DNA from: an uncultured Bacilli bacterium
GTDB lineage: Bacteria > Bacillota_I > Bacilli_A > RF39 > UBA660
Assembly (NCBI GenBank): GCA_934162265.1
Contig: CAKPHZ010000003.1
Span: forward strand, 2,852-66,851
Reading direction: 5' to 3'
Length of the DNA stretch: 64,000 nucleotides
Position 1 is the stretch's first letter, and each line of letters begins with the position of its first letter. The position numbers were made by a program, and so were the translations under genes. The notes beneath the pieces were generated by a model. That model was not told the DNA's origin and did not search any database. It saw nothing but the letters and a program-made list of their open reading frames with translations. This document shows positions 13,818 to 39,485 of the stretch, piece after piece.

Positions 13818-13841
13818 TAATCTATCTCCTTTCTTTTTTTA

Positions 13842-14647: not shown

Positions 14648-14666
14648 AATTCACAATGCACCCATA

Positions 14667-16357: not shown

Positions 16358-16379
16358 AATTTATCAACTACTTTCATTA

Positions 16380-16902: not shown

Positions 16903-16916
16903 AAAACACCTCTTTT

Positions 16917-18221
16917 CTAAGATTTTAAAAATTTGATTAATGCAATCATACAAGCCATACTAAACGTAGTGATAGCGACCCCTTTAATTTCGATAGGTAA
17001 AGTATTAAAGAATTTAGTAACTAAGCTCATAAAGTTAACAATAGAATCCCAAAATGAAGAAACTGTATCAGTAACATTGGAAACAATATCACTTAAAGTA
17101 AGTTTTTTACTTTCTCCAGGAACATAATTTTCTTCTTCATTCTTATTAGCACTAGAAGGTAACTTATCAAATGGAATAACGTGATATTTCTTACCGCCAA
17201 TCGTGACGACAAGGTCGTCAACGTTGTCGGCGGTAACGTATGTTACATCAAAGATAGTATTGTCAAATTTGAATGATGAACCTTCCTCACAACCTTTTAC
17301 AACGTAAAGAGAATTATTCTGTAAATCTTGTTTCAAGATAGATAATCTATAATCTGTATAAGCATCATACTTAACGTTACATCTATCTTGTACTTTAGAA
17401 CCCATAATGTCATCTTTAGCAGTTTGTCCAAAATTATAAATTGGAGTAATACCTATTGAACCTTTTACTTTTAAATTAGTGGTAAAAGCTTTATCCTGGT
17501 TATAATCTTTTAAATTTAGAATTACATATTCATAATTATCCAAATTGACTGTTGTAGTAGTAGAAGTATCTAACTTATCAAAAACTTTATCATAAGCATA
17601 AAATTGAGGAATAGTGTCACCTACATTTAAAGTTAGAGTTCCTTTATCTCTAAAATTTAAAAACTCAACAGTATTGATATTTTCTAGTGAAGTGGTTACC
17701 TTTAAATCAAAATTAGTAGTTAAAATTAAATCATAAAATTTATTTTGTCCAGCCAATGTCACAGAAGAACCAGAAGATTTTAATTTAAACTCAGGATTTA
17801 TATAAGTTTTCTCATTTAAATCATAACTAGCAAATATTGCACCATCTTCCCTAGGAAGAATATCAATCTCACCGCCGGTTAAACGTAATGATGGTCGAGA
17901 AGAATATAAAAAGAGAGATAAAGAATAAGAAGAAGTTGAATATCCATAATCTAATTGATAATATGGATAAATACTTTTATAATTTGTATTATATAAATTC
18001 ATGATAGAATTGTAAATTTCTAAAAAAATAGTACGATTATATTCTAAATTAAAAAAATCAACTTTTGTTTTAAAATCTGGAAATTCATCATAACCAGATG
18101 TACTATTAATAGAACTTATTACATATTTATCATTTTGAACACCTAATTTAGTATCATCAGCTTTAACATTTGGTGCTAGTACCACAAATAAAGTTAATAA
18201 TGTAAGTAAATATTTTTTCAT
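16917..18221 (-). CDS. Secreted, C-terminally anchored protein; pIII-like adsorption / minor coat candidate
   Basis: Signal peptide MKKYLLTLLTLFVVLAPNVKAD and a C-terminal TM. Size and position match inovirus gene III. Confidence 0.55.
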   Translation of the reverse strand: MKKYLLTLLTLFVVLAPNVKADDTKLGVQNDKYVISSINSTSGYDEFPDFKTKVDFFNLEYNRTIFLEIYNSIMNLYNTNYKSIYPYYQLDYGYSTSSYSLSLFLYSSRPSLRLTGGEIDILPREDGAIFASYDLNEKTYINPEFKLKSSGSSVTLAGQNKFYDLILTTNFDLKVTTSLENINTVEFLNFRDKGTLTLNVGDTIPQFYAYDKVFDKLDTSTTTTVNLDNYEYVILNLKDYNQDKAFTTNLKVKGSIGITPIYNFGQTAKDDIMGSKVQDRCNVKYDAYTDYRLSILKQDLQNNSLYVVKGCEEGSSFKFDNTIFDVTYVTADNVDDLVVTIGGKKYHVIPFDKLPSSANKNEEENYVPGESKKLTLSDIVSNVTDTVSSFWDSIVNFMSLVTKFFNTLPIEIKGVAITTFSMACMIALIKFLKS

Positions 18222-18895
18222 CTTGTTTTCCTCCTTCCTCGAAATAACATAAAAAATAATTCAAAAATCACAAAAGATAAAAGTATCCCTAATGCTGAAA
18301 AAAATATTTTGTTTTCAGTTGCAAAAGTTGCTAAAGAAGATAATTTACTTAAATAGATTGAATAAAAATTATCAAGTGTTGCATCTGCAGGTGTATCTGG
18401 TATATCTGGTTCAGTTTTAGGAATACAAACAGTATCACCTTCAACTAACCAAAAAGTCACATTCTTTAATTTTTCTTGAAGAACATCTAATTCATCTCGA
18501 GTATCATAAAACCAAACATTAAAAGATTTATTAGTTGGATTAAAAGTATATGAAGTTTTATTCAAATCATCTTGATTTAAAGAAATATTAGTTTGGTAAT
18601 AAATTCTAAAATAACTAGAATATTGATAAGAATAATTTAAAACTTCATTAAAAGTTTTAGTACCATCATTTAAATAAAAAGTATAGGTTTTAGAAGTATC
18701 TAAAGTAATAATTTCAGGACTGGAACCATCAACAGTTTTATTTAGAAAAGCAATTCCACCGTGCCAACCGCCAGAACCTTTATTCGAATAATAAAAATTA
18801 ATATCACTAGATAGTAAATTCGTACATTCTTCTGCTTTAACATTTGGTGCTAGTATCACAAATATAGCTAATAATGTAAGTAAATATTTTTTCAT
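18218..18895 (-). CDS. Second secreted, C-terminally anchored protein (paralogous signal peptide)
   Basis: The RBS AAGGAGAG precedes the ATG at 18895. Signal peptide MKKYLLTLLAIFVILAPNVKAE, C-terminal TM, then a RGRRKTR tail. Confidence 0.55.
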   Translation of the reverse strand: MKKYLLTLLAIFVILAPNVKAEECTNLLSSDINFYYSNKGSGGWHGGIAFLNKTVDGSSPEIITLDTSKTYTFYLNDGTKTFNEVLNYSYQYSSYFRIYYQTNISLNQDDLNKTSYTFNPTNKSFNVWFYDTRDELDVLQEKLKNVTFWLVEGDTVCIPKTEPDIPDTPADATLDNFYSIYLSKLSSLATFATENKIFFSALGILLSFVIFELFFMLFRGRRKTR

Positions 18896-19011
18896 AGTTA
18901 CTCTCCTTTCTAATAAAAGAAAAAAAGGATAAGTATTAAATGAGTGAACAAAAATTAACACTTAACCTTTCCCCTTTTAAATTAATGAGTTTATTGTCTA
19001 AATTGTTGATA

Positions 19012-19191
19012 TTAGTGACGCATAATGAATTTTTTTGCCATAAATACAATTGAAGAAACAATCGATAAGGCAAAAGGCACAAATAACATAGGAGTTGAAA
19101 TAATAGTCTCTCCAACAGTTCCAATATGACCTAATACAGCTGTAAACACAGAACCTAATGAAGTCAACATAGTAGCTAAAGTTTCACCCAT
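19012..19191 (-). CDS. Major coat protein (pVIII-like) candidate
   Basis: 59 aa: MGETLATMLTSLGSVFTAVLGHIGTVGETIISTPMLFVPFALSIVSSIVFMAKKFIMRH. It has a hydrophobic core, a basic C-terminus and the RBS AGGTGG. Confidence 0.6.
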   Translation of the reverse strand: MGETLATMLTSLGSVFTAVLGHIGTVGETIISTPMLFVPFALSIVSSIVFMAKKFIMRH

Positions 19192-19241
19192 ATCACATCC
19201 CACCTTTCTATTCCTTTTTTATTAAAACATTAAAAAATGCT

Positions 19242-19400
19242 TTAAACTAGTTCATAATTTAGTTTAAATAATTCCAATTCAGCGGAATTTAAGAAAACTA
19301 ACTTTTCGGCATTATCTGAAAGTTTGATAACAAGAACTTCATACTTACTGCCTTTTTTGGAAGTTCGTGTTTCTAATGTCGCTTGAATTTCAACATCCAT
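19242..19400 (-). CDS. Small prophage protein upstream of the coat gene (gene V position; function not established)
   Basis: Own translation, 52 aa: MDVEIQATLETRTSKKGSKYEVLVIKLSDNAEKLVFLNSAELELFKLNYELV. Confidence 0.35.
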   Translation of the reverse strand: MDVEIQATLETRTSKKGSKYEVLVIKLSDNAEKLVFLNSAELELFKLNYELV

Positions 19401-19436
19401 TTGTTACACTCTCCTCTCTAATAAAAAAATAACATT

Positions 19437-19460
19437 AAAAAAATTGAGGTACGACCTCAA
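19437..19460 (-). terminator. Rho-independent terminator-like hairpin inside the prophage
   Basis: TTGAGGT-CGT-ACCTCAA followed by a T-run on the minus strand. Confidence 0.45.
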
Positions 19461-19656
19461 TTAAATTTATAAATTTTTAAAACTTTAGGAATTTGTATAT
19501 AATATAAATTTTTCGTTTTAAAACGATATTTTAATTCTTTTTTTCTACGATGAACAAAATTAGATAATTCATCAAGATTATCACAATAAGCAATTAAATT
19601 ATCATACTTATCATAAACAACATAATACTCCAAGATATCCTTTCTAAATTAGATAA

Positions 19657-19678
19657 GATTCCCTTCAGCTGCTCCATT
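19657..19678. repeat. attR (original tRNA 3' end fragment)
   Basis: GATTCCCTTCAGCTGCTCCATT matches 12494-12515 at 21 of 22 positions. Confidence 0.75.
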
Positions 19679-27441: not shown

Positions 27442-27708
27442 TTATTTTTTTAGTAGGTTTTTTATATTTTTTATCAGATCATAAGTGCCTCCGGCACCTA
27501 AGCCAATTGAGATAATTACTAGATTAATATCTTTGGTCATTAAATAGTAAATGGTTCCTGAGATAAGACCAATGGCTAAATTTTGAATGGGAATTAGTTT
27601 ATTATTGAACCATGGTAATTTTTTGGCAATAAAGCCGCAAATAAATGTTACTATGATAGTGACTGTTCCTATAATTGTAGATACATCCATATAATCAAAT
27701 CCTTTCAC
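27442..27708 (-). CDS. Small three-TM protein, phage-holin-like
   Basis: 88 aa. The pattern NNKLIPIQNLAIGLISG...GLGAGGTYDLIKN resembles Phage_holin_1-type proteins. No lysin is adjacent. Confidence 0.4.
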   Translation of the reverse strand: MKGFDYMDVSTIIGTVTIIVTFICGFIAKKLPWFNNKLIPIQNLAIGLISGTIYYLMTKDINLVIISIGLGAGGTYDLIKNIKNLLKK

Positions 27709-27792: not shown

Positions 27793-27820
27793 ACGTTATT
27801 TTGGATGATTACATATGATA
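27793..27820 (+). promoter_or_regulatory. SigK-like (mother-cell late) promoter candidate upstream of the collagen-like gene
   Basis: AC (27793-27794), a 17-nt spacer, then CATATGATA (27812-27820, fitting CATAnnnTA), ~20 nt before the RBS AAAGGAG. A chance match is quite possible in AT-rich DNA. Confidence 0.25.
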
Positions 27821-27840: not shown

Positions 27841-28222
27841 ATGGGTTGTTTTGATAAAGCAATAAAAAAAATTCAGGAAGATAATTGTAAAACTAGATAT
27901 ATTTGTTGTATTGGACCTACTGGGCCTACTGGGCCTGCTGGTGGTGTAATAGGACCTACTGGGCCGACTGGACCTCAAGGAGAAAGAGGCTTGCAAGGTT
28001 TAATTGGACCTACCGGAGCTCAAGGTATTCAAGGTATTCAAGGTGTTCCTGGACCGACTGGAGCAACTGGACCTCAAGGAGTTCAAGGTATCCAAGGTAT
28101 TCAAGGAAATATAGGCCCTACTGGACCGACTGGACCTACCGGACCTACCGGACCGACTGGACCTCAAGGTGAGGCTGGTGCGCAAGGTATTGCTGGAGCA
28201 ATTGGTCCGACTGGACCTACTG
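27841..28222 (+). CDS. BclA-like collagen-repeat protein, 5' segment of a gene split by the serine-recombinase element
   Basis: RBS AAAGGAG plus ATG at 27841. The product [23 protein letters not shown] is followed by GPT/GxY triplets. The collagen frame is lost exactly at 28222 (..[22 protein letters not shown] stop). Confidence 0.75.
28210..28222. repeat. attL core of the serine-recombinase element
   Basis: ACTGGACCTACTG, identical to 39060-39072 and in the same codon phase. Confidence 0.7.
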
Positions 28223-28252
28223 CCCGATGTAATAAATCATCTATATATATTT

Positions 28253-30295
28253 TTAAATGGTAAAGTTCCACATTATTTTAATATCCCTTAAATTTGTTGT
28301 TTCATCATAGTTCCCTATGAGAATTTTATCAATAAAATCTTCAACAATTTCAATAGATAATTCTTTTATATGTCTGTACTTTTTAAAGATATTTTTTTTA
28401 GTTTTTACTGTTTCTTTTGTTGCTAGTGTAGATGATATTTCTTTCTTCACTATTTTTTGTCGTTCTTCTAACTTTTCGTTATCATCTTTATACTTATTCA
28501 TTAATATTAAAAACTCTTTTTCTGGAAGTATCCCATTTGTACGATCTTCATATAGCTTTTGAAAATATGTACTTTTAACTTGTAATTCCTTATTAATACT
28601 TTGTAATTCTTTTTCTAATGAATTTAATTTATCTTTGTATAAATCTTGTTCTATTACTTCGTTTTGCATTTCTTTAAGATCATCTTCTTCATAAAATTTC
28701 TTTAACACTTCATTCATTTTTTCTAATATAAATTGCTGTAGCCCGTCTTCTCTAATAGAAATTTTATTATTACAATTAGACCAGTTTGTCTTTTTATCTT
28801 TACAACATAAATATCCAGTACCGTCAGACCTACGAGAACTTGTTTTAGTAAATCTTTGATTACAATTAGAACAATATACTTTATTACATAGTGGGTGTAC
28901 TGTACCACCTTTGCAACTTCTAGCAGTATTTTCTAATCTTTTTTGAACTGTGTACCATATATCTTTAGCAATGATTGGCTCGTGTGTATTATCCTTTCTA
29001 ATTCTTGTTTCACCATCATTCCATATCACTGTGTGATTTTTGTAGCTAACTGTTGTTGATTTGAATTGTACCATATTACCTATATAAACTTCATCAGTAA
29101 GTAATGTTCTAATAGTAGAACTAGACCACTTAAACTTTTTTCTTATATTATGAATAAAGTCTGATTTTTTTATTTCATCTGCCCCCTTACCACAGATACT
29201 TATATAATAATCAACACGATCTCTGTTTTCTTTTAGAGTAATTTCAAACTGATAATTAATAGTGTGGGTACGATCAAGTTCTTTGGTATATGAAATAATC
29301 ACTTTAGCTGTCTTTGGTAAACAATCATTTTCATTTAATAAAATACAATCATCTATATTAAAGTTATTAATATCAATATTATCATTTTCACTATAATATA
29401 TTTTTGTTCTATTATTAGTGTATTTCTTTAATACAATATCACATTTATTATTAAAGTTTTTCATATCAGTAGTTATGTAATTAAAACTTACTAAATCTTT
29501 TAAGATATATTCTTCTTTATTAGTAAAACTTACATCTAACATATAAGTACCAGTTTTCTCAATATATCCATAATTTACATAATCCTTAATTACTGGTATT
29601 TTTAATTTACTACCATTAAGTAATTTGTATTCATAAGGACTTAATATTTTATCTTCATTTAATCTTCTTGCGATTTTATCAAGTCCAGTTCCTAACAAAT
29701 ACTCATCATAAATTCTTTTAATAACTAAAGAAGATATAGGATCAATTATTAAATGATTTTTATTTTCTGGATCTTTCATATAACCATAAGTCGCAAAACT
29801 TGAAGTAAGTTGACCGTCTTTTCTTTTTGACTTTAATGTTTCACGAATATTTAAAGATGTATCTTCTAAATACCACTCGTCCGTTAATCCTATAATTTGA
29901 CTTGTCTTTTTAGTTTCTTTTCTAGCATTATCAATTCTATCAACTACTGTTATAAATCTTACATTCCATTCGTGAAATAAGTTATGAACGTACTTTTCTA
30001 CAAGTTCCATATCACGAGCAAATCTAGCTTGCGTTTTGCATAAAACAATATCAACATTACCATTTTTACATTCTTCAATCATTCGGTTAAAATCAGGCCT
30101 TGTAGCATCAGATCCAGACCAATCATCATCATTATAAACACCAACAACTTCCCAGCCTTGTTCTTCAGTATAATCCCTTAACATTATTTCTTGATTTTTG
30201 ATACTTTGTGATAATTCTTCTTTTGATAGTTTGTTTTTATCTTCATCTGATAATCTTAAATATAACACCGTTCTAAAAGAATGTTTATTGTTCAT
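28253..30295 (-). CDS. Large serine recombinase (SpoIVCA / phage-integrase type)
   Basis: 680 aa. Has the resolvase N-domain with [10 protein letters not shown] (catalytic Ser), a recombinase domain, a Cys-rich zinc ribbon ([11 protein letters not shown]...CCKDK) and a C-terminal coiled coil. Confidence 0.9.
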
Positions 30296-30471
30296 GATTT
30301 ATTCCCCAGGCGCCTATTTTCGATTCTCTTAATATACTTAAAATATTTTTTGTTAAAAATGATTTTTAAATCTTCTTTAGTAGGGTTTTCTAGACTAGTA
30401 CTAAATTCTTCACTAAATCTAAATTTTATATAATTAATTTTTTTTCTTTCTTTATTCTTTTTTTCTTCCAA
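30292..30471 (-). CDS. Small basic ORF translationally coupled to the recombinase (TTG start)
   Basis: Own translation, 59 aa: (L/M)[58 protein letters not shown]. It is preceded by a G-rich RBS and its stop overlaps the recombinase ATG (ATGA). Confidence 0.3.
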   Translation of the reverse strand: MEEKKNKERKKINYIKFRFSEEFSTSLENPTKEDLKIIFNKKYFKYIKRIENRRLGNKS

Positions 30472-30651
30472 AATTCCCCCCCCTTAATATAAATAAAAAC
30501 TACAATTAATAGTTCCTAATTTAACTTATGAAATAAAATTAAATTTGATAACTAAATTAAAAATAAATATAATGTGCTAATGATTATTATAATGTAAATA
30601 ATATATAAAAGATTATAATTTTATGCTAAAATAATGATGAGGTTGATTACA

Positions 30652-31146
30652 ATGGAAGAAATATTAGTAGATGAAAATGGTTATAAACAATTCTTTGAAG
30701 AATTAAAAAGGCTGGAAGATTTAAGTCGCTCTAATTCAGCACTAGGTAGTGAAGTATATAAAGATGCTGTCGGTGATGGCTGGCACGATAATTTTGCTTT
30801 TGAAGAATCAATGAGGGAAAGCAGAGCGATAGCAAAAAGAATTGACGATTTATTATCAAAAAAGCAATACTTAAAAATCGTTGATGATAAGGATAAAAAG
30901 GAAAATTTAGTTAATATTGGTGATAAGGTTAGTATTAATATAAAATATTCTGATGATGTTATTGAAACAGAAGTAATAACATTAACAGGAAATTATATTC
31001 CCAATACTACTAATGAAATAAATGAAATATCTTTAAACAGTCCATTAGGAAAGGCATTGTTTAAAGCAAAAATTGGGACATCAACATCTTACTTTGTTGG
31101 AAATTCAGAGATATTTATAACTATTTTGGAAAAACTTAACAATTAA
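30652..31146 (+). CDS. GreA/GreB-family protein, paralog 1
   Basis: N-terminal coiled coil with the tip GDGWHDNFAFEESMRE. The C-terminal FKBP-like domain ISLNSPLGKALFKAKIGT parallels GreA ISVNSPIARGLIGK. Confidence 0.65.
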   Translation: MEEILVDENGYKQFFEELKRLEDLSRSNSALGSEVYKDAVGDGWHDNFAFEESMRESRAIAKRIDDLLSKKQYLKIVDDKDKKENLVNIGDKVSINIKYSDDVIETEVITLTGNYIPNTTNEINEISLNSPLGKALFKAKIGTSTSYFVGNSEIFITILEKLNN

Positions 31147-31273
31147 ACATATAAAGTTAATAAATAAAAATAAACTACATAAAGTACATTGAATATACGC
31201 AAAATAGAGCTAAATGCTTGATTTTTGAAAGAATGTGTGTTAACATATATGACAATTTTTGGAAGGTGTATGT

Positions 31274-31807
31274 ATGGAAAATATGGAGCCAATCTATTTA
31301 GACCAAGACGGCTATAATGAATATCTAAAAAAAATTGAAGAGTTGAAAAAAGCAATTCAAGCAAACAATATGGGAAGAAAAGAAGCATTTGATGCTGGGG
31401 CTGGTGATGGCTGGGATTCTCCAGAGTTTGAAGAAATAGAAAGAACCAATATGAGATTAAATGGTGAATTACGTAATATGTACGAATCACTAAATAGAAT
31501 TGTTATCATTGAAAAACATAACGATCAAGAAATAGTTGATATTGGTGATGTTATTGTAGCGGATATGATTTTCTCTCCAGATGATATGGAAGAAATGACA
31601 TTTAAGCTAGTTGGTGCAAGTGGATATTTCAATGCTGAAATTCAAGAAATTTCAATAAATAGCCCATTAGGAAATGCTGTTTATAAAAAGAAAATTGGAG
31701 ATACTTGTTCTTATTCAGTAAATAACAGAAATTTTTCAGTTTTACTAAAACATAAAATGGATTTAACAAAAGAAAATGGTGCCCCAGTAAAAAAATTAAA
31801 AAAATAA
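31274..31807 (+). CDS. GreA/GreB-family protein, paralog 2
   Basis: Tip GDGWDSPEFEEIERT and C-terminal ISINSPLGNAVYKKKIGD. The RBS GGAAGGTG precedes the ATG at 31274. Confidence 0.65.
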   Translation: MENMEPIYLDQDGYNEYLKKIEELKKAIQANNMGRKEAFDAGAGDGWDSPEFEEIERTNMRLNGELRNMYESLNRIVIIEKHNDQEIVDIGDVIVADMIFSPDDMEEMTFKLVGASGYFNAEIQEISINSPLGNAVYKKKIGDTCSYSVNNRNFSVLLKHKMDLTKENGAPVKKLKK

Positions 31808-31826
31808 TTTTTTATTGAGGTGTAAT

Positions 31827-32393
31827 ATGAGTAAAGTTAGCAATACTTTAACAATGTTAAGATTGTTAGAGAGTGGTAAAAAGTATTCAGTGAAAGAGTT
31901 AGCAGAAAAATTGGAAGTTTCGCCAAGAATGATAAAATCATATAAAGAAGAATTAGAAAAATGTGGAATATATATTGATACTATTCTTGGCAGATATGGT
32001 GGTTATGTGTATCATAGAAAACATAATTACAATATATCTTTTGATTATTTAGATGTTGATGCAATAGAAAGTGTTATATATAAATTAGATCTTAAAGAAC
32101 AACAAAAATTAAACATTACACTAGAAAAAATAAGATCAATAGTTATTTATTCAGCAGACGAAAAAAGAAATATTAAAATTGATAAAGAAGATTTGCAGAA
32201 AAAATATAATATTATTTCAAGAGCAATCCAAGAACAAAATATATTAACCTTTAAATTTCACAACAAAAAGAGACGATTTCAACCCTTTTCATTCACATAC
32301 TATAAAGACTTTATTTATATTACTGGTTATTCAATAGATGAAAATGATATTAAAACCCTAAATTTAAGTGGAATTGATGATTTAAAAATGTGA
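31827..32393 (+). CDS. HTH-WYL domain transcriptional regulator
   Basis: N-terminal wHTH LTMLRLLESGKKYSVKELAEKLEVSPRMIKSYKEELEKCGIYI and a C-terminal WYL-like segment ILTFKFHNKKRRFQPFSFTYYKDFIYITGYS. Confidence 0.6.
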   Translation: MSKVSNTLTMLRLLESGKKYSVKELAEKLEVSPRMIKSYKEELEKCGIYIDTILGRYGGYVYHRKHNYNISFDYLDVDAIESVIYKLDLKEQQKLNITLEKIRSIVIYSADEKRNIKIDKEDLQKKYNIISRAIQEQNILTFKFHNKKRRFQPFSFTYYKDFIYITGYSIDENDIKTLNLSGIDDLKM

Positions 32394-32421
32394 TTTTGTA
32401 AAAAAAAGTCACATTTTTTTA
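32384..32421 (+). terminator. Rho-independent terminator after the WYL regulator
   Basis: AAAATGTGA ... TCACATTTT stem followed by a T-run. Confidence 0.45.
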
Positions 32422-32510
32422 ATGGTACGATATATCGCACCTATAACTGTTATAATCTTTCTTGAAAGGAAAGTTCCTCCTATGTTAATTTGCTGGGACA
32501 AGGTAGTAAG

Positions 32511-33188
32511 ATGAATAATTTATTTGTTTCTCTATTATATCTTATAATTTCATTTTCTGCAACTTTGGTGATATATAAAAGATTTGGAAAATTTGGATTA
32601 TATAGTTGGATGTGTTTGTTGGTTGTTATCTGTAATATTCAAACGATTAAACTATCAGAAATATTTGGATTAACAATTTCATTAGGAAATATATCATACG
32701 GAGCTTTGTTTCTTACAACTGATATTATAAGTGAAAAATACGGTAGAAATTCAGCAACAGAAGCAACGAATTTAAGTTTTGTTTTTATGATATTATTTAC
32801 TATTTTAATGTATCTATTTTTGCAATACACACCGTGTAATTCTGATTTTTCACAAAATGCTTTTGAAACAATATTTAGTTTTATTCCACGTATAACATTA
32901 GGAAGTTTAACCGCATATTGTTTTAGTCAACGCTGTGATGCCTACTTATATGAAAAGTTAAAAAAGAAATATAATAAAGTCTGGATAAGTAATAATGTCA
33001 GCACAATAATTAGCCAAGTATTAGATACTACTATATTTGTTTTAATTGCCTTTGTAGGAACAATGAAACTTAATGAAATTATATCTTTAATGATTACTAT
33101 GATAATTTTTAAGTGGATCATAGCAATATTAGATACACCATTTATGATAATAACAACAAAAATAAAAAATAATAAGGATTTGGAGTGA
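32511..33188 (+). CDS. VUT-family (YhhQ/DUF165) transporter, queuosine-precursor (preQ0/preQ1) transporter type
   Basis: About 6 TM. The conserved stretches ISYGALFLTTDIISEKYG, RITLGSLTAYCFSQRCDAYLYEKLK and STIISQVLDTTIFVLIAF are present. An extended -10 TGTTATAAT lies at 32445-32453. Confidence 0.7.
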   Translation: MNNLFVSLLYLIISFSATLVIYKRFGKFGLYSWMCLLVVICNIQTIKLSEIFGLTISLGNISYGALFLTTDIISEKYGRNSATEATNLSFVFMILFTILMYLFLQYTPCNSDFSQNAFETIFSFIPRITLGSLTAYCFSQRCDAYLYEKLKKKYNKVWISNNVSTIISQVLDTTIFVLIAFVGTMKLNEIISLMITMIIFKWIIAILDTPFMIITTKIKNNKDLE

Positions 33189-33194
33189 TTAATT

Positions 33195-33743
33195 ATGAAA
33201 AAATGTTTATTAAATGAAGACCAAAAAACATTAAAGTCAAATAACAAGATCGTAAAATTTGACTACGAGCATTATATTGACGCTTGTAAAGTTATGGCTG
33301 AAGAAATTAAAAAAAATTACAACTTAGATGAAGATAATATCGAATTAATAGGTATGGCTAGAGGTGGTTTACCTATGTTAGTTACATTATCACATTTATT
33401 AGGAATAAGAAAAGTATCAATGATTCAAACACAGATGAGTAATTCAGATAATTGCCACGATTACGGTAAATTTAGATATATGAGTGATAATATAGATAAT
33501 TCTAAAACAAAATGTATATTATTTGAAGACATAATTTATAAAGGAACAACTACGAATGGTGTTATCGATATATTAAAACAAAGAGGAAAAGAAGTTATTG
33601 GTGTATATTCTTTAATAATTGATAAAGGCTTCAAAGAAATTGAAATACCAAATAATGATGTAGATATTAAATATGCTTATGAAATAACAGAAGATGATTG
33701 GGTTTACTTTTTCTGGGAAACAGATTTAAGAGAAATAAAATAA
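33195..33743 (+). CDS. Xanthine-guanine phosphoribosyltransferase (Gpt)-like PRTase
   Basis: LIGMARGGLPMLVTLSHLLGIRKV parallels E. coli Gpt [24 protein letters not shown]. The PRPP loop CILFEDIIYKGTTT and the C-terminal DDWVYFFWE (Gpt DTWIEQPWD) also match. Confidence 0.7.
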   Translation: MKKCLLNEDQKTLKSNNKIVKFDYEHYIDACKVMAEEIKKNYNLDEDNIELIGMARGGLPMLVTLSHLLGIRKVSMIQTQMSNSDNCHDYGKFRYMSDNIDNSKTKCILFEDIIYKGTTTNGVIDILKQRGKEVIGVYSLIIDKGFKEIEIPNNDVDIKYAYEITEDDWVYFFWETDLREIK

Positions 33744-33770
33744 TAATTTAACATTTGGGAGGTGTTTATA

Positions 33771-34382
33771 ATGATTGATACAAGAAATAATCCTATTGTA
33801 ATTTCTGGCCCATCAGGTAGTGGGAAATCGGAACTTATAGAATATATCGAAAAGGAATATCCAACTTTTTTGGAAGCCACTGGAATAACAACTAGAGCTA
33901 AAAGAGAAATTGAAGTTGGAAGAATGTATTTTGTTAGTAAAGCAGAATTTGAAAATTTAATTTCAACAGATGGTTTAATAGAATATTGTATTTATAATAA
34001 TAATTATTATGGAGTACCTAAAAGCGAATTTGAAAAATTGAAAGAATATCATTTAATGTTTAATGTTGGCTATTCATCAGCAAAGGAAATTAAGAAGATG
34101 TATGAAGATACAACTATGATTTATCTTATGCCACCTACAAAAGAAGAATTGCTACGTAGATTAGGAGATCGTGGGGAGGAAAGATATTTACTAGGTATTC
34201 AAGAAACTATGAATTATGCCTTAAAATATGATTTTTTATTGTTATCATTGACTAATGATATGAAAACAACAACAGATGACTTTATGGATATTGTAAATCA
34301 AAAGGAAGAATCAAAACAAAAAAAATTAGTACTAGCTAAAAACAAAGATTTTATAACTAACTTTTATAAAGGAAGGCGCTAA
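33771..34382 (+). CDS. Guanylate kinase family protein
   Basis: P-loop IVISGPSGSGKSEL, GITTRAKREIEVGRMYFVSKAEFE, NNNYYGVP and ..PPTKEELLRRLGDRG. Confidence 0.8.
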   Translation: MIDTRNNPIVISGPSGSGKSELIEYIEKEYPTFLEATGITTRAKREIEVGRMYFVSKAEFENLISTDGLIEYCIYNNNYYGVPKSEFEKLKEYHLMFNVGYSSAKEIKKMYEDTTMIYLMPPTKEELLRRLGDRGEERYLLGIQETMNYALKYDFLLLSLTNDMKTTTDDFMDIVNQKEESKQKKLVLAKNKDFITNFYKGRR

Positions 34383-34384
34383 AA

Positions 34385-35371
34385 ATGATTTATGAATTGA
34401 ATTTAGATGGCAAAATAGAAGTTAGTAAAATTAAAAAGTTTTTAGCAGATAACTCTGATTCCGATTATATGCAAAGTATTGAATGGAATATTATTAGAAA
34501 TGAAAAAACAAAATATTTTATATACTATGTTGAAAATGAAGAAATAATATGGAGTTGTAATTTGCTAGAGAAAGAGAAAAATAATGTTAAATATTTATAT
34601 GCACCACGAGGACCTGTATTAAAAAATTCTAATTTTGATTTAATAAATTTATTCTTAAAAAATATAAAAGAATGGCTATCAATAAAAAAATACACAACAC
34701 TTGTAATTAATCCATATATAAATGAAATAGATTTAAAAAAGATTTCAAGTGAATACAATTATAGGATTACACAAAATAATGATTATAGTAATTTGCTTGA
34801 TTCTTGTAAATTAGCAATTATGGATATAATATTTAATGAAGAAGAACTTATAAAAAAACTACCAAGTAAGTTTAGGCAAAATACAAGAAGATCATATCGT
34901 AAGGAATTAACAAGTAAAATTTCAAAAGAAGTAGATTTAGATAATTTCTACAAACTATATATTCAAACATCAGAAAGACATAAATTCAAGTCACATACTA
35001 TTGAATATTTCAAAAAACTTATATCAACTTATAATGATAACCTAATTTTTTTAGAAGTTTGGTATAACAATATGCCTCTAGCAATGAGTATCGATATTAT
35101 TTATAATAATAAATTAATATATTTATACGGAGTTAGTTCAACTGAAAATAGAAATTTATTAGGAATGTATAATATGCAATGGGAAGCTATTAAGTATTGT
35201 ATTAATAACAAAATACCGAAATATGATTTTGGCGGAGTATTCTGTGAAGAAAATGATATAGAGAATAAGGATTATGGGTTGTATAATTTTAAAAAAGGAT
35301 ATTGTTATAATGGATTTATTGATATTGTTCCAGATATAACTTTTACTTTTGGAGGTAATAAAAATGATTAA
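34385..35371 (+). CDS. FemAB/FemX-family aminoacyl-tRNA-dependent transferase
   Basis: 328 aa. YLYAPRGPV, LPSKFRQNTRRSYRK, ERHKFKSHTIEYFKKL and YDFGGV...GLYNFKKGY are collinear with Weissella FemX. Confidence 0.75.
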   Translation: MIYELNLDGKIEVSKIKKFLADNSDSDYMQSIEWNIIRNEKTKYFIYYVENEEIIWSCNLLEKEKNNVKYLYAPRGPVLKNSNFDLINLFLKNIKEWLSIKKYTTLVINPYINEIDLKKISSEYNYRITQNNDYSNLLDSCKLAIMDIIFNEEELIKKLPSKFRQNTRRSYRKELTSKISKEVDLDNFYKLYIQTSERHKFKSHTIEYFKKLISTYNDNLIFLEVWYNNMPLAMSIDIIYNNKLIYLYGVSSTENRNLLGMYNMQWEAIKYCINNKIPKYDFGGVFCEENDIENKDYGLYNFKKGYCYNGFIDIVPDITFTFGGNKND

Positions 35372-36659
35372 TGTAGTATTTGAAGGATCAACTGGTGCAG
35401 GAAAAACAACAATCATAAAAAAAATAAAAAAGATATACGATAAAAAATATAAAGTCGGAATAACAAATAACATAGATAAAAGTTCACCACTATATAAAGT
35501 TATTAAAGCAATGTTTGATGATAACGCATTAGTATCATTAAAAGAAAATTTTAACACATTAAGATGTGAGACGTTAGTACAAGCAGCAGATTATTTGTTT
35601 TTAAGAGAAAAATTATATAGTGAAAATAATGATATAAATTTATTTGATAGAAATTATTGTTCTGTATATTCGTATCAATCTGTATTATTAGAAAACAATA
35701 TAAATAATTCACAAGAGTTTATGAATAATGTACTCTCTTGTATGAAGTCTGGTGAAAGAAAAATTGATTTACTGATATACTTTGATATAAATTTAAAAAC
35801 ATCTTTAAAACGTTCACAAGAAAGAGATAATAGAAAATTTACAAAGCAAGAAAAAGAAACATTTAAAAAATTTAATGATAAATTAAAAGATTTTATTAGA
35901 TACAATAATAGTGAATATAATCTTTTGGTTATTGAAAACAATGATACAGAAGAAGAAATAATCAACAAAATAACGAAAAAAATTAACGAAATAATAGAAG
36001 ATAAAAAGAAAACAGAAGATGATAAATGGTATGAATTATACAAGATAGATATAGAAGAATTTGATAAACCTGATGATTATATTGAGTATAAACTTAAATA
36101 TAAGAAAAAATTTATTAATAAAGTGATTCAATATGCTAAGAACAAAAAAGTAATTGAAATGGGTTGCGGTACTGGATTAATGGCGGGATATTTACAAAAG
36201 TTAGGATTAGATGTTATTGCACTTGATTTAAGTCAAGCAGTTTTAAATTACGCTTGCGAAATAGCAAAACAATCAAATATTATATCTCCTTGTAAATACG
36301 AACAAGGTGATATACTTAATTTAAAATATAAACCAAATACTTTTGATGTATCATACAGTAATGGTGTTTTAGAACATTTTACTGATGAAGAAATAATTGA
36401 AATTTTAAAGCAACAAATGAATATTTCTAAATATGTTATTTTTGGAATACCAAGCACATATTTTAATATGAATGAAAAAATGCTAGGTAATGAACGTGGA
36501 CTAACATTAAAAGAATGGAAATCTCTTATTAATAAAGCTGGTGGAAAATTAGTAGAACAAACAAGTTTTCACTACTACAAGTTATATAGAAGAATATTTG
36601 AAGTAAAAAAATGGTTAAAACCTAAAGCCTTTTGGTTATTTGTAATAGAAAAAAAGTAA
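35364..36659 (+). CDS. Fusion protein: thymidylate-kinase-like NMP kinase (N) and class I SAM methyltransferase (C)
   Basis: The N-terminus has VVFEGSTGAGKTT ... DRNYCSVYSYQ ... KRSQERDNR. The C-terminus has VIEMGCGTGLMAGYLQKLGLDVIALDLS and ..VSYSNGVLEHF. It overlaps the fem stop. Confidence 0.7.
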   Translation: MINVVFEGSTGAGKTTIIKKIKKIYDKKYKVGITNNIDKSSPLYKVIKAMFDDNALVSLKENFNTLRCETLVQAADYLFLREKLYSENNDINLFDRNYCSVYSYQSVLLENNINNSQEFMNNVLSCMKSGERKIDLLIYFDINLKTSLKRSQERDNRKFTKQEKETFKKFNDKLKDFIRYNNSEYNLLVIENNDTEEEIINKITKKINEIIEDKKKTEDDKWYELYKIDIEEFDKPDDYIEYKLKYKKKFINKVIQYAKNKKVIEMGCGTGLMAGYLQKLGLDVIALDLSQAVLNYACEIAKQSNIISPCKYEQGDILNLKYKPNTFDVSYSNGVLEHFTDEEIIEILKQQMNISKYVIFGIPSTYFNMNEKMLGNERGLTLKEWKSLINKAGGKLVEQTSFHYYKLYRRIFEVKKWLKPKAFWLFVIEKK

Positions 36660-36728
36660 AATTTAAAATGATAAAAACAAAAATTACCAATTACATGATA
36701 TAATTAAAGAAGGAGATGATATATATTT

Positions 36729-37289
36729 ATGAAAAAGATAACTTATGTGACTGGAAATTGGTCTAAAATAATGAGTGCTAAAAACATATTAGAGCCACTA
36801 GGAATTGAAGTTGACAATGTAAAAATGGAAACAACAGAAATTCAAGCTGATACTGTGGAAGAAGTTGCAATGCACTCTGCTAAAGAAGCTAGCGACAAAT
36901 TAAAATGTGCAGTATTAAAAAACGATACAGGATTATATGTAGAAGCATTAGGTGGCTTCCCAGGACCGTATACACATTATGTAGATGAAAGACTTGGTGA
37001 AGACGGATTATTAAAACTTCTTGAGGGAATTGATAATAGAAATGCTTGTTTTATGGAAGCATTTGCATATTGTGAATATGGAAAAGATCCTATTGTATTT
37101 AAATCTATTACCAAAGGAAAAATAGCAAAAGAAAAATCTGGTACGTATGGTTGGAGTTGGGATTTCATTTTCATACCAGACGGTTATGATAAGACAATGG
37201 GAAATTATCCAGATGAAGAAAGATGCCACGTTTGGAATACTGATGCTTATACAGAATTAGCTGATTACTTGAAAAACAAGGAAGATTAA
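36729..37289 (+). CDS. Ham1/ITPA-family non-canonical purine NTP pyrophosphatase
   Basis: ITYVTGNWSK, TEIQ, KNDTGLYVEALGGFPGPYT and GTYGWSWDFIFIP. Confidence 0.75.
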   Translation: MKKITYVTGNWSKIMSAKNILEPLGIEVDNVKMETTEIQADTVEEVAMHSAKEASDKLKCAVLKNDTGLYVEALGGFPGPYTHYVDERLGEDGLLKLLEGIDNRNACFMEAFAYCEYGKDPIVFKSITKGKIAKEKSGTYGWSWDFIFIPDGYDKTMGNYPDEERCHVWNTDAYTELADYLKNKED

Positions 37290-37293
37290 TAAA

Positions 37294-38289
37294 ATGGAAG
37301 AAATAGGTTGTCATTTTAAATTTGAAAAAATAATTGGTAATATTTATCACGATACAAATTTACTACTAAGTTCTGGTAGAAATTGTCTAAAATATATTAT
37401 TAATGAAAGAAATATAACAACATTATTTCTTCCATATTTCTTATGTGAAGCATTAAGTGAAGTTGCTGTATCTGAAAATGTAAAAATAGAATTTTACCAT
37501 ATTGATAATAATTTTATGCCATTAGATATAGATGAAAACAAACTAAATGACACAACCTATATTTACTTTGTAAATTATTATGGATTATTTAAAGATAATA
37601 TTCAAAAAATTATTGATAAATATAAATATGTAATAGTTGATAATACTCACGACTTTTTTTATAAAGACAATTACGGTGTAGATGTCATATACAATTATAG
37701 AAAATATTTTGGAGTTCCTGATGGAGCTTGTATAGTTAGTAATGATTTAGTTCCTAATTCTAAATACTCTAAAGGTAAAAGTTTAAATAAAGTGATTGAG
37801 ATGTTATCAAGAGATGAAACAGGACAATACTTCCATTATCTAACTTTTTTAGAAGCAGATAAACATTTTAGAAATGAAGATTTATGCTATATGTCTAATT
37901 TCACTGAAAACTATTTACGTGCAATAGATTATGAAACGGTACTAAAAAATAGATTAAGAAATTATGAGATGCTTTATGAATCACTAAAAAAATATAATCA
38001 ATTAGATTTATCTTCGAAACAGTTAACATATATGTATCCACTATTTGTATCTGACGGTAAATCTTTAAGAGCTTACTTAAAATCTAATAATATCTATTCA
38101 TTAAGATTATGGGCTAATATAAATTGGAATGGTGCTAATACAGATGAAATAACAAAAGCAGATAATATGGTTTTATTACCAATAGATCAACGTTATTCAG
38201 ATAATGAAATGGAATACATTGCAAGTGTAATTGATAAATATTATTCAAATAATCATAATAAAAGTAAAATTTTAGTCAAGGGGAAATAA
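37294..38289 (+). CDS. DegT/DnrJ/EryC1-like PLP-dependent enzyme (divergent)
   Basis: The order SGRNCLKYII ... VIVDNTHDFF ... YNYRKYFGVPDGACIV matches the SGTAAL / EDaA / SFxxxK-GG layout of sugar aminotransferases. The assignment is tentative. Confidence 0.45.
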   Translation: MEEIGCHFKFEKIIGNIYHDTNLLLSSGRNCLKYIINERNITTLFLPYFLCEALSEVAVSENVKIEFYHIDNNFMPLDIDENKLNDTTYIYFVNYYGLFKDNIQKIIDKYKYVIVDNTHDFFYKDNYGVDVIYNYRKYFGVPDGACIVSNDLVPNSKYSKGKSLNKVIEMLSRDETGQYFHYLTFLEADKHFRNEDLCYMSNFTENYLRAIDYETVLKNRLRNYEMLYESLKKYNQLDLSSKQLTYMYPLFVSDGKSLRAYLKSNNIYSLRLWANINWNGANTDEITKADNMVLLPIDQRYSDNEMEYIASVIDKYYSNNHNKSKILVKGK

Positions 38290-38310
38290 TGAAAGAAGAA
38301 AACATTTTAC

Positions 38311-38967
38311 TTGGTTTCAAGTAATGAAGAAGTCAATAGTGTTTTAAACAATATGAAATCAAACTCTAAAGTATATTTGAAATTGATAACAGGATTACAA
38401 TTACTAGGTAATTTTGAAGGAAAAACAGAAATTGGTTTCTACGATAAAATAGATGATGATAAAGAGAAAAAAATAAGACTTTGGTGTACTGATTCTGATG
38501 ATAATCTATTTGTATTTTATGGATATTCTTCAGATAGAACTGATTTACTAAAAGTCACAAAAGAGACAAACGAAGAAACGTTAGAATATGATTTAACTTT
38601 AGCAAAAAAGTTTACTCTTAACTCTAATAATACAAATTTTACTAGATCTAATCAAATTTATGGCTTTAAATTTGGAAGATTAATAACTGGCAGTAATAAC
38701 TTTTATAGTTTGTTTTTAAGAGATGACATTGGTTATCAAATACAAGGAGATTTGAATACAAGCATAGTAAAAGAATTATTAAGTGAATTAAATAAATTAG
38801 AAAACTTGCCAAAGCTCACTGATTACTTAAATATCTTTGAAAGAATTTTAAGTGTTAAAGATATACATTTCTCTATATTATCAATATCAGCATTTAAAGA
38901 TTTTGAAAACATTGGCTCTTTTCAAATAAATGATAAAAAGTCAAAGAGCTTAACATTAAAAAAATAA
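38311..38967 (+). CDS. Hypothetical protein, last gene of the cargo operon (start uncertain: TTG 38311 or ATG 38353)
   Basis: 218-aa ORF. No motif recognised. Confidence 0.45.
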
Positions 38968-38994
38968 AACAAGTCAACTGGCTTGTTTTTGTTT
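38967..38994 (+). terminator. Rho-independent terminator of the cargo operon
   Basis: AAACAAGTC-AACT-GGCTTGTTT followed by a T-rich tail. Confidence 0.55.
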
Positions 38995-39059
38995 GCATTA
39001 ATAAGAGAATATGCTTGAAATTACAATTAATTCTATTAGATGATTTATTTTATCGAGCA

Positions 39060-39072
39060 ACTGGACCTACTG
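39060..39072. repeat. attR core of the serine-recombinase element
   Basis: ACTGGACCTACTG, identical to 28210-28222. Confidence 0.7.
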
Positions 39073-39449
39073 GTCCTCAAGGTGAAGCTGGTGCGCAAGG
39101 TGTTGCTGGAGCAATTGGTCCGACTGGACCTACTGGTCCTCAAGGTGAGGCTGGTGCGCAAGGTGTTGCTGGAGCGATTGGTCCGACTGGACCTACTGGA
39201 CCTCAAGGTGAGGCTGGTGCGCAAGGTGTTGCTGGAGCGATTGGTCCGACTGGACCTACTGGGCCTCAAGGTGAGGCTGGTGCGCAAGGTGTTGCTGGAG
39301 CAATTGGTCCGACTGGACCTACTGGTCCTCAAGGTGAAGCTGGTGCGCAAGGTGTTGCTGGAGCGATTGGGCCGACTGGACCTACTGGACCTCAAGGTGA
39401 AGCTGGTGCGCAAGGTGTTGCTGGAGCAATTGGGCCAACTGGACCTACT
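39072..39449 (+). repeat. Tandem repeat, 6 x 63 bp (a seventh unit lies at 28159-28221)
   Basis: Exactly 378 bp of head-to-tail 63-bp units. Every inter-unit difference I checked is at a synonymous third position. Confidence 0.95.
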
Positions 39450-39485
39450 GCTACATTATTATATTTCTTCTTGTTTTTTATATAA
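39073..39485 (+). CDS. BclA-like collagen-repeat protein, 3' segment of the split gene
   Basis: Six perfect repeats of [21 protein letters not shown] are followed by the short hydrophobic tail [11 protein letters not shown]. There is no own start or RBS, and the upstream frame reads through element DNA. Confidence 0.7.

Follow-up and report, generated by a model that had tools for sequence, protein, structure and literature searches.

A mobile element with a TnpX/TndX-like recombinase splits a collagen-repeat gene in an uncultured RF39 bacterium

The window, a stretch of 64,000 nucleotides from an uncultured low-GC gut bacterium of the Bacilli (RF39 lineage), contains a collagen-repeat gene split by a mobile element. 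The element's anatomy, its crossover at a dinucleotide AC and a natural empty site could be defined, and its family inserts at multiple sites with a preference for collagen genes. It is very probably a cargo-carrying transposon moved by a multi-targeting large serine recombinase (LSR) of the TnpX/TndX type, with collagen genes as its usual targets. The family is widespread, and its recombinase appears to read GPTGP-coding DNA, hence a protein-coding repeat serves as target.

The split gene, the element and its ends

The 5′ segment of the collagen gene (27841..28220, + strand) encodes a Cys-rich N-terminus of 24 aa followed by GXY triplets, and includes the first of the 63-bp repeat units; the interrupted ORF currently extends over 27841-28263 on the + strand. 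The 3′ segment (39062..39485, + strand) holds six 63-bp repeats, a count that is uncertain because the array contains a 100-N gap in an independent ENA scaffold of the locus, and ends with an 11-aa hydrophobic tail. A sequence-only reading of the window had reported this ORF, with collagen coding lost at 28222 and back at 39060, had taken both segments for one gene, and had proposed a search for an uninterrupted orthologue of its joined ORF of ~264 aa. All these features are present, and an uninterrupted orthologue of 201 aa was found in a related wild strain, L099, between the same neighbours, tag and a holin-like gene. The N-terminus of the 5′ segment is identical to that of the intact L099 allele, and the C-terminus of the window gene is also found there.

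The whole element (28221..39061, 10,841 bp counting one AC) is missing from the orthologous L099 site. Its left terminal arm, the P′ half-site TGCCCGATGTAATAAATCATCTA (28221..28243), is complementary at 20/23 positions to the right arm, the P half-site TAGATGATTTATTTTATCGAGCA (39037..39059), a match far above chance (P about 5e-6 for random 23-mers from the window); the same right arm borders the element in L003 and L007. Joined as TAGATGATTTATTTTATCGAGCA-AC-TGCCCGATGTAATAAATCATCTA, the two arms form a palindrome of 48 bp with AC at its centre. The inverted repeats noted earlier (28225-28243 and 39037-39055) are indeed there (17/19 match). A palindromic attP could be reconstructed as previously described, with 57 bp and 22/28 arm matches, but is redefined here as the 48-bp form.

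We place the crossover at the AC of attL (28219..28220, + strand), the first two bases of a Thr codon, and of attR (39060..39061, + strand), because the junctions of relatives with the same element share little else (only AC between the two junctions of L007, only ACTG in L003), in a comparison that included the AC-group elements, and because the geometry across the family is ATCG-N4-AC-N4-CGAT. The 13-bp sequence ACTGGACCTACTG, earlier taken as the core, does occur at 28210 and 39060, but it is not the crossover core. All 8 copies of it in the window lie in the split gene, where it belongs to the 63-bp collagen repeat, and for this reason it is not evidence alone. Deleting 10,850 bp, the size first given for the element, reproduces the in-frame ORF of 264 aa; the AC crossover corrects the deletion to 10,841 bp and restores a protein of 267 aa, with one GPT more. 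The L099 joint reads GPTGPTGPT, exactly as the AC crossover predicts. That the split should be a chimeric join made by assembly within a repetitive gene has a negligible chance of being right: short-read assemblies do break in the repeat (L002 and L092 end there, and the scaffold with the gap is another case), but identical junctions recur in assemblies made independently from several samples, in agreement with the inverted repeats at the termini, the empty site and the junction geometry seen across the family.

Directly inside the left end, where the sequence-only reading had seen it, lies the gene for an LSR of 680 aa (28253..30295, − strand; Pfam domains Resolvase, Recombinase, Zn_ribbon_recom and DUF4368). 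The catalytic Ser16 is kept; across 20 homologues neither S16 nor R14 varies. The closest solved relative is TnpX (2mhc, E 7.5e-15); the protein matches the PHROG ‘integrase’ with E 1.5e-87, and its identity to any protein of the plasmid collection is below 40%. DUF4368 is the mark of a clade of multi-targeting LSRs that includes TndX-like transposases (Durrant et al. 2022, PMC10083194), and by its predicted domains the window LSR is a member of this DUF4368/TnpX-like clade.

Directly upstream of the LSR gene lies a basic ORF of 59 aa (30292..30471, − strand; pattern F.Y.EEF.T……ELK.IFNKKYF.YIKR.ENR), a candidate accessory or directionality factor. It gave no match in Pfam, NCBIfam, PADLOC or PHROGs; a profile search found homologues at 72 loci, on the same strand and directly upstream of the LSR. 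TnpX-type enzymes are not known to require a partner, and the small ORF, conserved upstream of every LSR of the family, is left unaccounted for by the transposon model, which we count against it. Alignment of the upstream regions of 50 distinct elements defined a control region for the small-ORF/LSR operon (30498..30552, − strand), with ATCAAAT-N15-CATAAGTTA followed by the palindrome GGAACTATTAATTGTAGTT and a T-run, of ambiguous promoter type.

The cargo (30634..38967, + strand) comprises genes for two divergent GreA-like proteins, an HTH-WYL regulator, a queuosine-precursor transporter, a purine-type phosphoribosyltransferase, a guanylate kinase, a FemX-like transferase, a dTMP-kinase/SAM-methyltransferase fusion, a Ham1 NTP pyrophosphatase and two proteins without assigned function. 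It differs between copies of the same element (about 4.7 kb in L003 and L101, about 11.9 kb in L007). Domain and PHROG searches found no phage or conjugation genes in the element, and it gave no match in phage, plasmid or viral collections. The transposon model does not explain how an element without transfer genes passes from cell to cell, a second point against it.

Insertion sites across the family

In human-gut metagenomes, 85 stretches carry the left end as an exact 25-nt match, with 53 distinct flanks. Almost all of these terminate in GGNCCNAC, with the consensus GG (53/53, 51/53)-N-CC (45, 52)-N-AC (53, 52), and a few are not collagen-coding. In 80 representative genomes, collagen-like genes are split at GGNCCN-AC-NGGNCC by elements with LSR homologues of 42-95% identity; the form arm-AC/GT-NGGNCC, with T-G-P/A-x-G flanks, was read at 56 of the 59 readable junctions. 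Element direction tracks the central dinucleotide, with AC giving the same orientation as the gene and GT the opposite one. A sister LSR subfamily is located in ABC-ATPase genes. Nine elements with both ends mapped (2.9-12 kb) have imperfect terminal repeats and collagen coding on each side, and rebuilding the joined gene restored the ORF in eight of them; the ninth, L048, failed only through a one-base boundary error. A few contigs with family members bear the labels of unrelated taxa (Oribacterium, Acidaminococcus, Roseburia, Muribaculaceae), probably through binning errors. Relatives place the host of the window, probably, in the order RF39.

These data contradict the dedicated attB/attP pair in one gene, on the model of skin and SPbeta, that the sequence-only reading had assumed, as 53 different flanks adjoin one and the same element end. 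A classical site-specific island or prophage remnant of this kind, with one dedicated skin-like attB, vertically inherited and immobile, would fit the finding that several strains of the species carry the element in this one gene, and the similar identity between strains of element (about 97%) and flanks (91-99%). It is nevertheless highly improbable: besides the 53 flanks, LSRs about 95% identical occur in eight species-level genomes, in different genes or positions, and LSRs that are 87-95% identical (L003-L010) have the same end attached to different flanks; within the window species the insertion follows repeat unit 1, 2 or 3 of the gene (a 4.7-kb variant after unit 2 or 3 in other strains), and L099 lacks the element; and the element has no phage genes. 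Metagenome contigs gave 0 hits for an excised circle or attP joint, which counts against the transposon model, and it is from the distribution of insertions that we infer the element's activity as a transposon.

In the model that we favour, the LSR would pair the 48-bp palindromic joint with short quasi-palindromic targets, GGNCCN-AC-NGGNCC, and exchange strands at AC, so that each insertion would fall in frame, at a Thr codon. The target motif is a coding sequence for Gly-Pro-Thr-Gly-Pro, and collagen-repeat genes therefore offer many landing sites in a row: the split gene holds all 22 GGNCCNACNGGNCC sites of the window (0 expected). The window element would have landed after the first 63-bp repeat, and the LSR, perhaps with its conserved 59-aa partner, could reverse the reaction at the two ACs and restore the gene exactly. 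Collagen genes would be tolerated targets because they are presumably dispensable in growth, present in several copies and expressed only late in sporulation.

The insertion might itself have a function, reversible truncation after a variable number of repeats producing phase or length variation of spore-surface filaments. The insertion position in the array does vary by strain, the truncated ORFs are intact (140-182 aa across strains, with a common 13-aa ending), the window gene encodes no globular domain at its C-terminus, so that a truncated product might still assemble, and one gene offers 22 equivalent target sites. We find this unlikely, however: switching within a population is not in evidence, slippage can alter repeat number without transposition, and the 13-aa tail is a mere read-through of the terminal repeat.

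Sporulation signals and developmental excision

The sigmaK consensus of B. subtilis is AC-N16/17-CATAnnnTA. Upstream of the window collagen gene lies a promoter-like element (27793..27820, + strand), AC-N17-CATATGATA, whose CATA begins 29 nt before the ATG. The motif CATAnnnTA was found 24-33 nt upstream of 22/26 collagen genes with a Cys-rich N-terminus, compared with 23/1186 other ORFs (Fisher p about 1e-30), with a C at −17/−18 in 18/23.

Such target genes resemble late mother-cell genes, and this speaks for developmental excision: an LSR made in the mother cell during sporulation, together with the small protein as directionality factor, would excise the element at the two ACs and rebuild a spore-surface gene, the forespore keeping the element. 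The sigmaK-type motif is also common to GT2-TPR glycosyltransferase genes, with a near-match at −27 of a Coat_F operon. The Coat_F gene (54.4 bits) lies on the host contig, so that sporulation genes are not wholly lacking in the host, a lack that the earlier reading had set against its own proposal, and RF39 bacteria are predicted to sporulate (PMC10868615). Its term ‘BclA-like’ holds for the gene family, by the promoter motif and by BclA_C domains in related targets (39.8 bits in L039, 36.4 bits in the 3′ part of the L003 target), but not for the window gene, in which no BclA_C was found. In C. difficile, bclA1-3 are sigmaK-dependent (PMC3789822). The small ORF stands beside its LSR at the 72 loci as GirX, SprB and CD1234 stand beside theirs (PMC5595907), and in the window's subgroup the small-ORF/LSR operon is preceded by CATAAGTTA, with a C lying 17 nt before it. 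Eight of the nine mapped split genes are restorable, and gin provides a non-viral precedent.

Against this, DNA target preference alone fully explains the location in a collagen gene, a few of the 53 flanks are non-collagen and the sister subfamily resides in ABC-ATPase genes. TnpX-like enzymes are not known to need a directionality factor for excision. Upstream of the small ORF, the CATA motif occurs in only about 21/50 distinct elements, and there it lies 41-61 nt from the start codon, unlike the spacing in collagen genes. The attP joint of an excised circle had 0 matches in metagenome contigs, and host sporulation is a prediction, not an observation. Developmental excision is thus possible but doubtful, and it would refine the transposon model rather than strictly oppose it.

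Comparison with known systems

As in the BclA exosporium glycoproteins of the Bacillus cereus group and C. difficile, collagen triplets rich in GPT follow a short N-terminal domain in the window protein. BclA_C closes related target genes, an intact 287-aa version (L105) adjoins a glycosyltransferase gene, and the gene family shares a sigmaK-type promoter motif with bclA1-3. The differences are the Cys-rich N-terminus and the 11-aa hydrophobic tail in place of BclA_C; the window product is a putative spore-surface protein.

Among sporulation-specific intervening elements, skin (SpoIVCA; CD1231 and CD1234), SPbeta (SprA and SprB) and the non-viral gin in gerE (GirC and GirX) (PMC5025042, PMC4191935, PMC5595907), we found no collagen or BclA-type gene as target in the searchable literature. 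Like them, the window element splits an ORF, carries its LSR at one end with a small gene beside it, and would allow precise restoration; its target resembles a late mother-cell gene and its host is probably a spore former. Like gin, it has no phage genes. Each of the three has one dedicated site in one gene, whereas the window element has at least 53 sites, and their excision during sporulation is demonstrated, whereas that of the window element is hypothetical.

In TnpX and TndX transposons the central dinucleotide is GA, whereas it is AC in the window element. Tn4451/Tn4453 (TnpX) and Tn5397 (TndX) are clostridial LSR-moved transposons within a wider multi-targeting DUF4368 clade (PMC10083194). 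The window element resembles them in the domain set of its recombinase, DUF4368 included, with TnpX as best solved relative; in the many insertion sites of one enzyme lineage; and in a crossover that falls on a fixed dinucleotide, flanked by inverted repeats that are imperfect, with targets similar to the joint of the element. It differs from them in having a conserved small ORF beside every LSR and no mobilisation or resistance genes, and in the hosts of its family, which are uncultured RF39-type bacteria. The target of this family is also longer and structured (GGNCCN-AC-NGGNCC), and it coincides with a protein-coding repeat, which is why insertions in collagen genes fall in frame.

The split gene, its ends and its intact alleles

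The ORF starting at 27841 codes for an N-terminus followed by GXY triplets. Collagen coding is lost at 28222, with a stop 13 codons further on, and is back at 39060, where it continues with six 63-bp repeats and a short tail, all in a window of 25.5% G+C. The window junctions recur in independent assemblies from several samples, and therefore do not reflect an assembly chimera. Metagenomes in which this strain occurs include ENA ERZ28614475 / SAMEA4766111 and the Hadza samples. Strains differ in their count of 63-bp repeats and in how long their GPT runs are (array at window positions 39060-39450), and an independent scaffold of the same strain carries a 100-N gap inside the array (L001 10811-10910), so that the repeat count of the window is not to be read as exact.

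The sequence-only reading had described inverted repeats just inside the two ends and a 57-bp imperfect palindrome at their joint. Both were recovered, with 17/19 matches between the repeats and 22/28 arm matches at the joint. It had also taken a shared 13-bp repeat for the recombination core, which had to be given up. Being contained in the repeat unit, this sequence has eight copies in the window. It does not fix the point of exchange, and mirrors the 9-bp periodicity of the target. In L003 and L007, two other copies of the same element (LSR nucleotide identity ∼95-96%, LSR standing for large serine recombinase), the overlap between the two junctions is ACTG only and AC only, respectively, and family-wide the ends read …CAATCG-N4-AC-N4-CGATTG…. 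These overlaps and this end geometry place the exchange at the AC of 28219-20 and 39060-61, and the element at 28221-39061 (10,841 bp). The window attP, i. e. the joined element ends, is TAGATGATTTATTTTATCGAGCA-AC-TGCCCGATGTAATAAATCATCTA, with arms matching at 20 of 23 positions (P ∼5e-6 against random 23-mers of the window), and the predicted attP joint is TTTTATCGAGCAACTGCCCGATGTAAT. The ends thus read as predicted for strand exchange at a fixed central dinucleotide, AC, duplicated at both junctions.

Precise in silico excision produced a 267-aa ORF, with GGTCCGACTGGACCTACTGGACCTACTGGTCCTCAAGG as the predicted attB joint of the restored gene. The earlier claim of a gene that can be restored in frame stood, except that the product has one GPT more than had been predicted. 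An uninterrupted orthologue, proposed as a check, was sought in relatives and found in L099, a contig from a related strain with flanks 92-99% identical to the window. There, an unbroken 201-aa gene lies between the same neighbours, tag and the holin-like gene; its N- and C-termini are the same as those of the window gene, and this natural allele carries the joint predicted by the AC model (58 of 62 bases of the modelled attB match). A homology search with the joined protein missed this allele, the best matches being generic collagen/BclA_C proteins at 52-67% identity, and when the tag and 3-hydroxyacyl-CoA dehydrogenase proteins were used for a look-up, only element-bearing or truncated contigs came up. 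What led to the allele was an exact-sequence search with the 82-aa holin-like protein encoded next to it.

Within one species, the locus takes several forms: empty (L099), a longer intact version (L105), a 4.7-kb variant after repeat unit 2 or 3 (L101-L104, L106), and the 10.8-kb variant after repeat unit 1 (window). Collagen is the sole family matched by the two intact alleles (PF01391, 89.5 bits in L099 and 107 bits in L105), and no BclA_C domain was found in either. The L105 version is 287 aa long, with a C-terminal domain …PSLTIGTVTTGAPGSQATASISG…LDLTIPQG, and is followed by a GT2-TPR glycosyltransferase gene, not by tag. This locus is at L105 5870-7851; GT2-TPR genes that have the collagen-gene promoter motif in other contigs are at L027 12226-13299 and L054 10219-11319 (reverse-complement coordinates). 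On the other side, the gene for the holin-like membrane protein (82/88 aa, window 27442-27708, minus strand; PHROG holin, 9.5e-7) adjoins the collagen gene divergently in all strains of this species, and the protein may have a role in mother-cell lysis or export. A similar-looking N-terminal sequence, with CATAnnnTA at -28, is present at L067 9605-9856.

A recombinase family with many target sites

The LSR of the element (680 aa, 28253-30295, minus strand) has a Resolvase, Recombinase, zinc ribbon and DUF4368 architecture (Pfam E values of 1.4e-22, 1.5e-18, 1.2e-6 and 1.6e-6), and its catalytic S16 is unchanged in 20 homologues. Its top PDB match is TnpX, a clostridial LSR transposase, and DUF4368 is the mark of a ‘multi-targeting’ LSR clade that includes TndX-like transposases (PMC10083194). 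Relatives are numerous: 3,239 were found in gut metagenomes at E≤1e-20, a single 95%-identity cluster numbers 2,148 sequences, and homologues at 42-95% identity are present in 80 species-representative genomes, labelled mostly as uncultured Mollicutes, Tenericutes or Bacilli. CAG-914 and CAG-878, to which the family-member carriers L025 and L053 belong, are genera of order RF39. Some carriers look misfiled (L004, L010, L016, L047, L056 and L075, under Oribacterium, Acidaminococcus, Ruminococcus, Muribaculaceae and Roseburia). As several of these contigs (L004, L010) are only a few kb long, the unrelated taxon labels are likely due to mis-binning; alternatively, they may correspond to real transfer outside RF39.

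Insertions of the family favour a coding motif. About 30 bp past the LSR stop, an AT-rich arm leads to AC (or GT) and then NGGNCC at 56 of the 59 readable junctions, where the flank codes for T-G-P/A-x-G…. Both ends were mapped in nine elements of 2.9-12 kb, with imperfect terminal repeats and collagen coding on either side. When the joined gene was rebuilt for the nine, an in-frame ORF was obtained in eight, the boundary being one base off in the last, L048. Where the joint reads AC relative to the LSR, element and gene point the same way; in the window's subgroup it reads GT and they point opposite ways, as expected from the central-dinucleotide rule of serine recombinases. In a sister LSR subfamily (∼51% identity; L052, L058, L059, L070), with the junction ∼26-27 nt past the LSR stop, insertion is at …GCACCA-AC-NGG… within ABC-transporter ATPase genes, at their conserved (E)PTGALD motif. 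This subfamily has reused a related core, CCA-AC-NGG, in another conserved coding motif.

Exact copies of the 25-nt left end were found in 85 stretches of human-gut metagenome contigs. The flank could be read in 78 of them, which gave 53 distinct flanks, nearly all coding for …G-P/A-T, with the consensus GG (53/53 and 51/53), N, CC (45 and 52), N, AC (53 and 52). In addition, eight LSRs 87-95% identical to that of the window (L003-L010) have the same end against eight flanks in eight genomes. LSRs are termed multi-targeting when recombinases ≥90% identical occur in more than three unrelated target genes (PMC10083194); here, the identical 25-nt end is found with 53 flanks, and L003-L010 occupy eight different sites. 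A single dedicated attB is ruled out by these 53 flanks, and by the position within the window gene, which varies among strains. In the window itself, GGNCCNACNGGNCC has 22 matches, all within the split gene, where none is expected by chance.

Could the element be a phage or an integrative conjugative element? No virion, lysis-lysogeny or conjugation gene was detected in it with Pfam, NCBIfam or PHROGs, and the whole element gave no match in a near-identity search against phage and plasmid records. Its left end was found 0 times in IMG/VR, and viral contigs yielded only 5 LSR relatives, all distant. Lacking phage and conjugation genes, and missing from phage, plasmid and viral collections, the element was not retained as either. 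We conclude that it is an LSR transposon of the TnpX/TndX type, as shown by the AC crossover, the multi-site insertion, the GPTGP-coding target and the natural empty site. No literature linking LSR elements with collagen or BclA-type genes was found in open-access text.

The cargo differs between copies of the element; the terminal arms, the LSR and the ∼240 bp that precede the LSR are constant. The smallest members (2.9-3.1 kb; L048 9154-12072, L041 1631-4739) have terminal repeats enclosing little beyond a small ORF, the LSR and one extra gene, and are insertion-sequence-like elements driven by an LSR. In the window, the cargo (30634-38967) looks suited to salvaging or handling a modified purine, with genes for a queuosine-precursor transporter (TIGR00697, 174.7 bits), a purine-type phosphoribosyltransferase, a guanylate kinase, a dTMP-kinase/SAM-methyltransferase fusion and a Ham1 NTP pyrophosphatase. 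An HTH-WYL regulator, a FemX-like transferase and two GreA-like proteins, both divergent, are encoded there as well. A PADLOC scan recognised no defence system in it, the WYL regulator being the sole match. In the shorter copies, the cargo is reduced to Ham1 and the two proteins of unknown function.

At 72 loci, the LSR is immediately preceded, on its own strand, by a small basic ORF of 47-61 aa (59 aa in the window, 30292-30471, minus strand). This small ORF has no match in Pfam, NCBIfam, PADLOC or PHROGs. On its 5′ side is a conserved ATCAAAT-N15-CATAAGTTA, then a palindrome GAACTAT…ATAGTTC (window 30498-30552). A CATAnnnTA form is present there in only ∼21 of 50 distinct elements, and its C is not kept in several subgroups. 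The promoter type is thus ambiguous, and could be sigmaE/K-type or housekeeping. The palindrome, GAACTAT-N1-5-ATAGTTC followed by a T-run (window 30498-30516, minus strand), has the promoter-like motif on one side and the ribosome-binding site of the small ORF on the other, is found at an equivalent position in ∼40 loci, and could be an operator or attenuator governing LSR expression.

The window carries another element, of ∼7.2 kb (12516-19678), which adjoins tRNA-Gly (12439-12513) and is bounded by a 19-bp direct repeat, TCCCTTCAGCTGCTCCATT (12497 and 19660). It encodes a tyrosine integrase, a Rep_OBD/RepB_C replication protein, a Zot-like ATPase and many small ORFs, and is not present in the related strains L099, L101-L104 and L107. 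From its gene content it looks like a filamentous (inovirus-type) prophage in a host of Gram-positive lineage.

Target genes, promoter motif and possible sporulation of the host

In the target genes, a common N-terminus of 25-40 aa with several cysteines precedes GPT-rich collagen. Among the targets of sister elements, BclA_C is present in L039 (39.8 bits, cutoff 38), the 3′ part of the L003 target (36.4), L042 (31.9) and L045 (29.9), the last three scoring under this cutoff. Of 26 target-type genes, 22 have CATAnnnTA at 24-33 nt ahead of the start codon, versus 23 of 1,186 other ORFs, and two of these 23 are themselves collagen N-termini (Fisher p ∼1e-30). In 18 of 23 cases, the motif has a C at a distance of 17 or 18 nt on its upstream side. 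The sigmaK consensus of B. subtilis is AC-N16/17-CATAnnnTA, and the motif with its upstream C matches this sigmaK type, as far as can be judged from sequence. The same motif is found ahead of genes for GT2-TPR glycosyltransferases, a GH25 lysozyme and a holin-like protein. In C. difficile, bclA1-3 are sigmaK-dependent (PMC3789822).

Spore formation in RF39 has been predicted from genomes only (PMC10868615). On the ENA version of the window contig, 99.98-100% identical to the window, we read a gene for Coat_F (spore coat protein F; 54.4 bits, cut-off 25.7) 0.4-0.7 kb left of window position 1. It ends a two-gene operon (L094 11360-11903) whose first start codon has CATAATAAG 27 nt ahead of it. 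The operon shows directly that spore-coat genes have been retained in the host. A total lack of sporulation genes, which the sequence-only reading had named as fatal to its proposal, is therefore not the situation here.

Why collagen genes should be hit so often can be proposed as follows. They would be tolerated landing sites because they are, presumably, multi-copy, dispensable during growth and specific to late sporulation. The GPTGP motif is a neat answer to the need for a landing site both conserved and dispensable: selection on the collagen triple helix keeps it constant, and each gene has many copies of it. This is a natural LSR family whose defined 14-bp degenerate palindromic site, GGNCCN-AC-NGGNCC, coincides with a repeat of a structural protein. 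For LSR engineering it offers dozens of natural attP/attB pairs, in which AC versus GT sets the orientation. RF39, among the commonest uncultured orders of the human gut, gains a widespread, previously undescribed mobile element with its cargo.

Possible developmental excision and known intervening elements

Whether the element leaves the gene during development is a separate question. Excision in the mother cell would agree with all the features, and three of them (promoter motif, Coat_F gene, conserved partner ORF) hint at it; we nevertheless consider it rather unlikely. The location of the element is explicable without developmental excision, and the attP joint of an excised circle was found 0 times in the metagenome contigs, against 85 integrated copies, in assemblies that rarely capture rare circles. 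A broader proposal, which we put forward just as tentatively, is that of a new class of gene-intervening elements, GPTGP-tied transposons spread over the BclA-type spore-surface genes of RF39 and excised in the mother cell by the LSR with its 59-aa partner. Spores could then keep the element, while the coat or exosporium would be built from the restored genes. If this is true, the range of developmental DNA rearrangement would widen to a lineage both uncultured and genome-reduced, and to a multi-copy target class, and there would be genetic evidence for RF39 sporulation. The junction sequences now make sporulation, and developmental rearrangement of spore-surface genes in these bacteria, concretely testable.

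Several known systems resemble parts of this one. The order of small ORF and LSR recalls the pairs of LSR and recombination directionality factor SprA/SprB, CD1231/CD1234 and GirC/GirX, and makes the small ORF a candidate partner. The L105 order of collagen and GT2-TPR genes, together with the same promoter motif at GT2-TPR genes of other contigs, recalls the bclA-glycosyltransferase pairs of known spore formers. Collagen repeats are common to the window gene and BclA-type exosporium proteins, but the window gene is without BclA_C. Finally, as with skin, SPbeta, vfbin and gin, the sporulation-specific intervening elements, precise excision restoring an intact ORF is feasible here too, in silico; whereas each of those has one dedicated site in one gene, the present element is found with 53 flanks.
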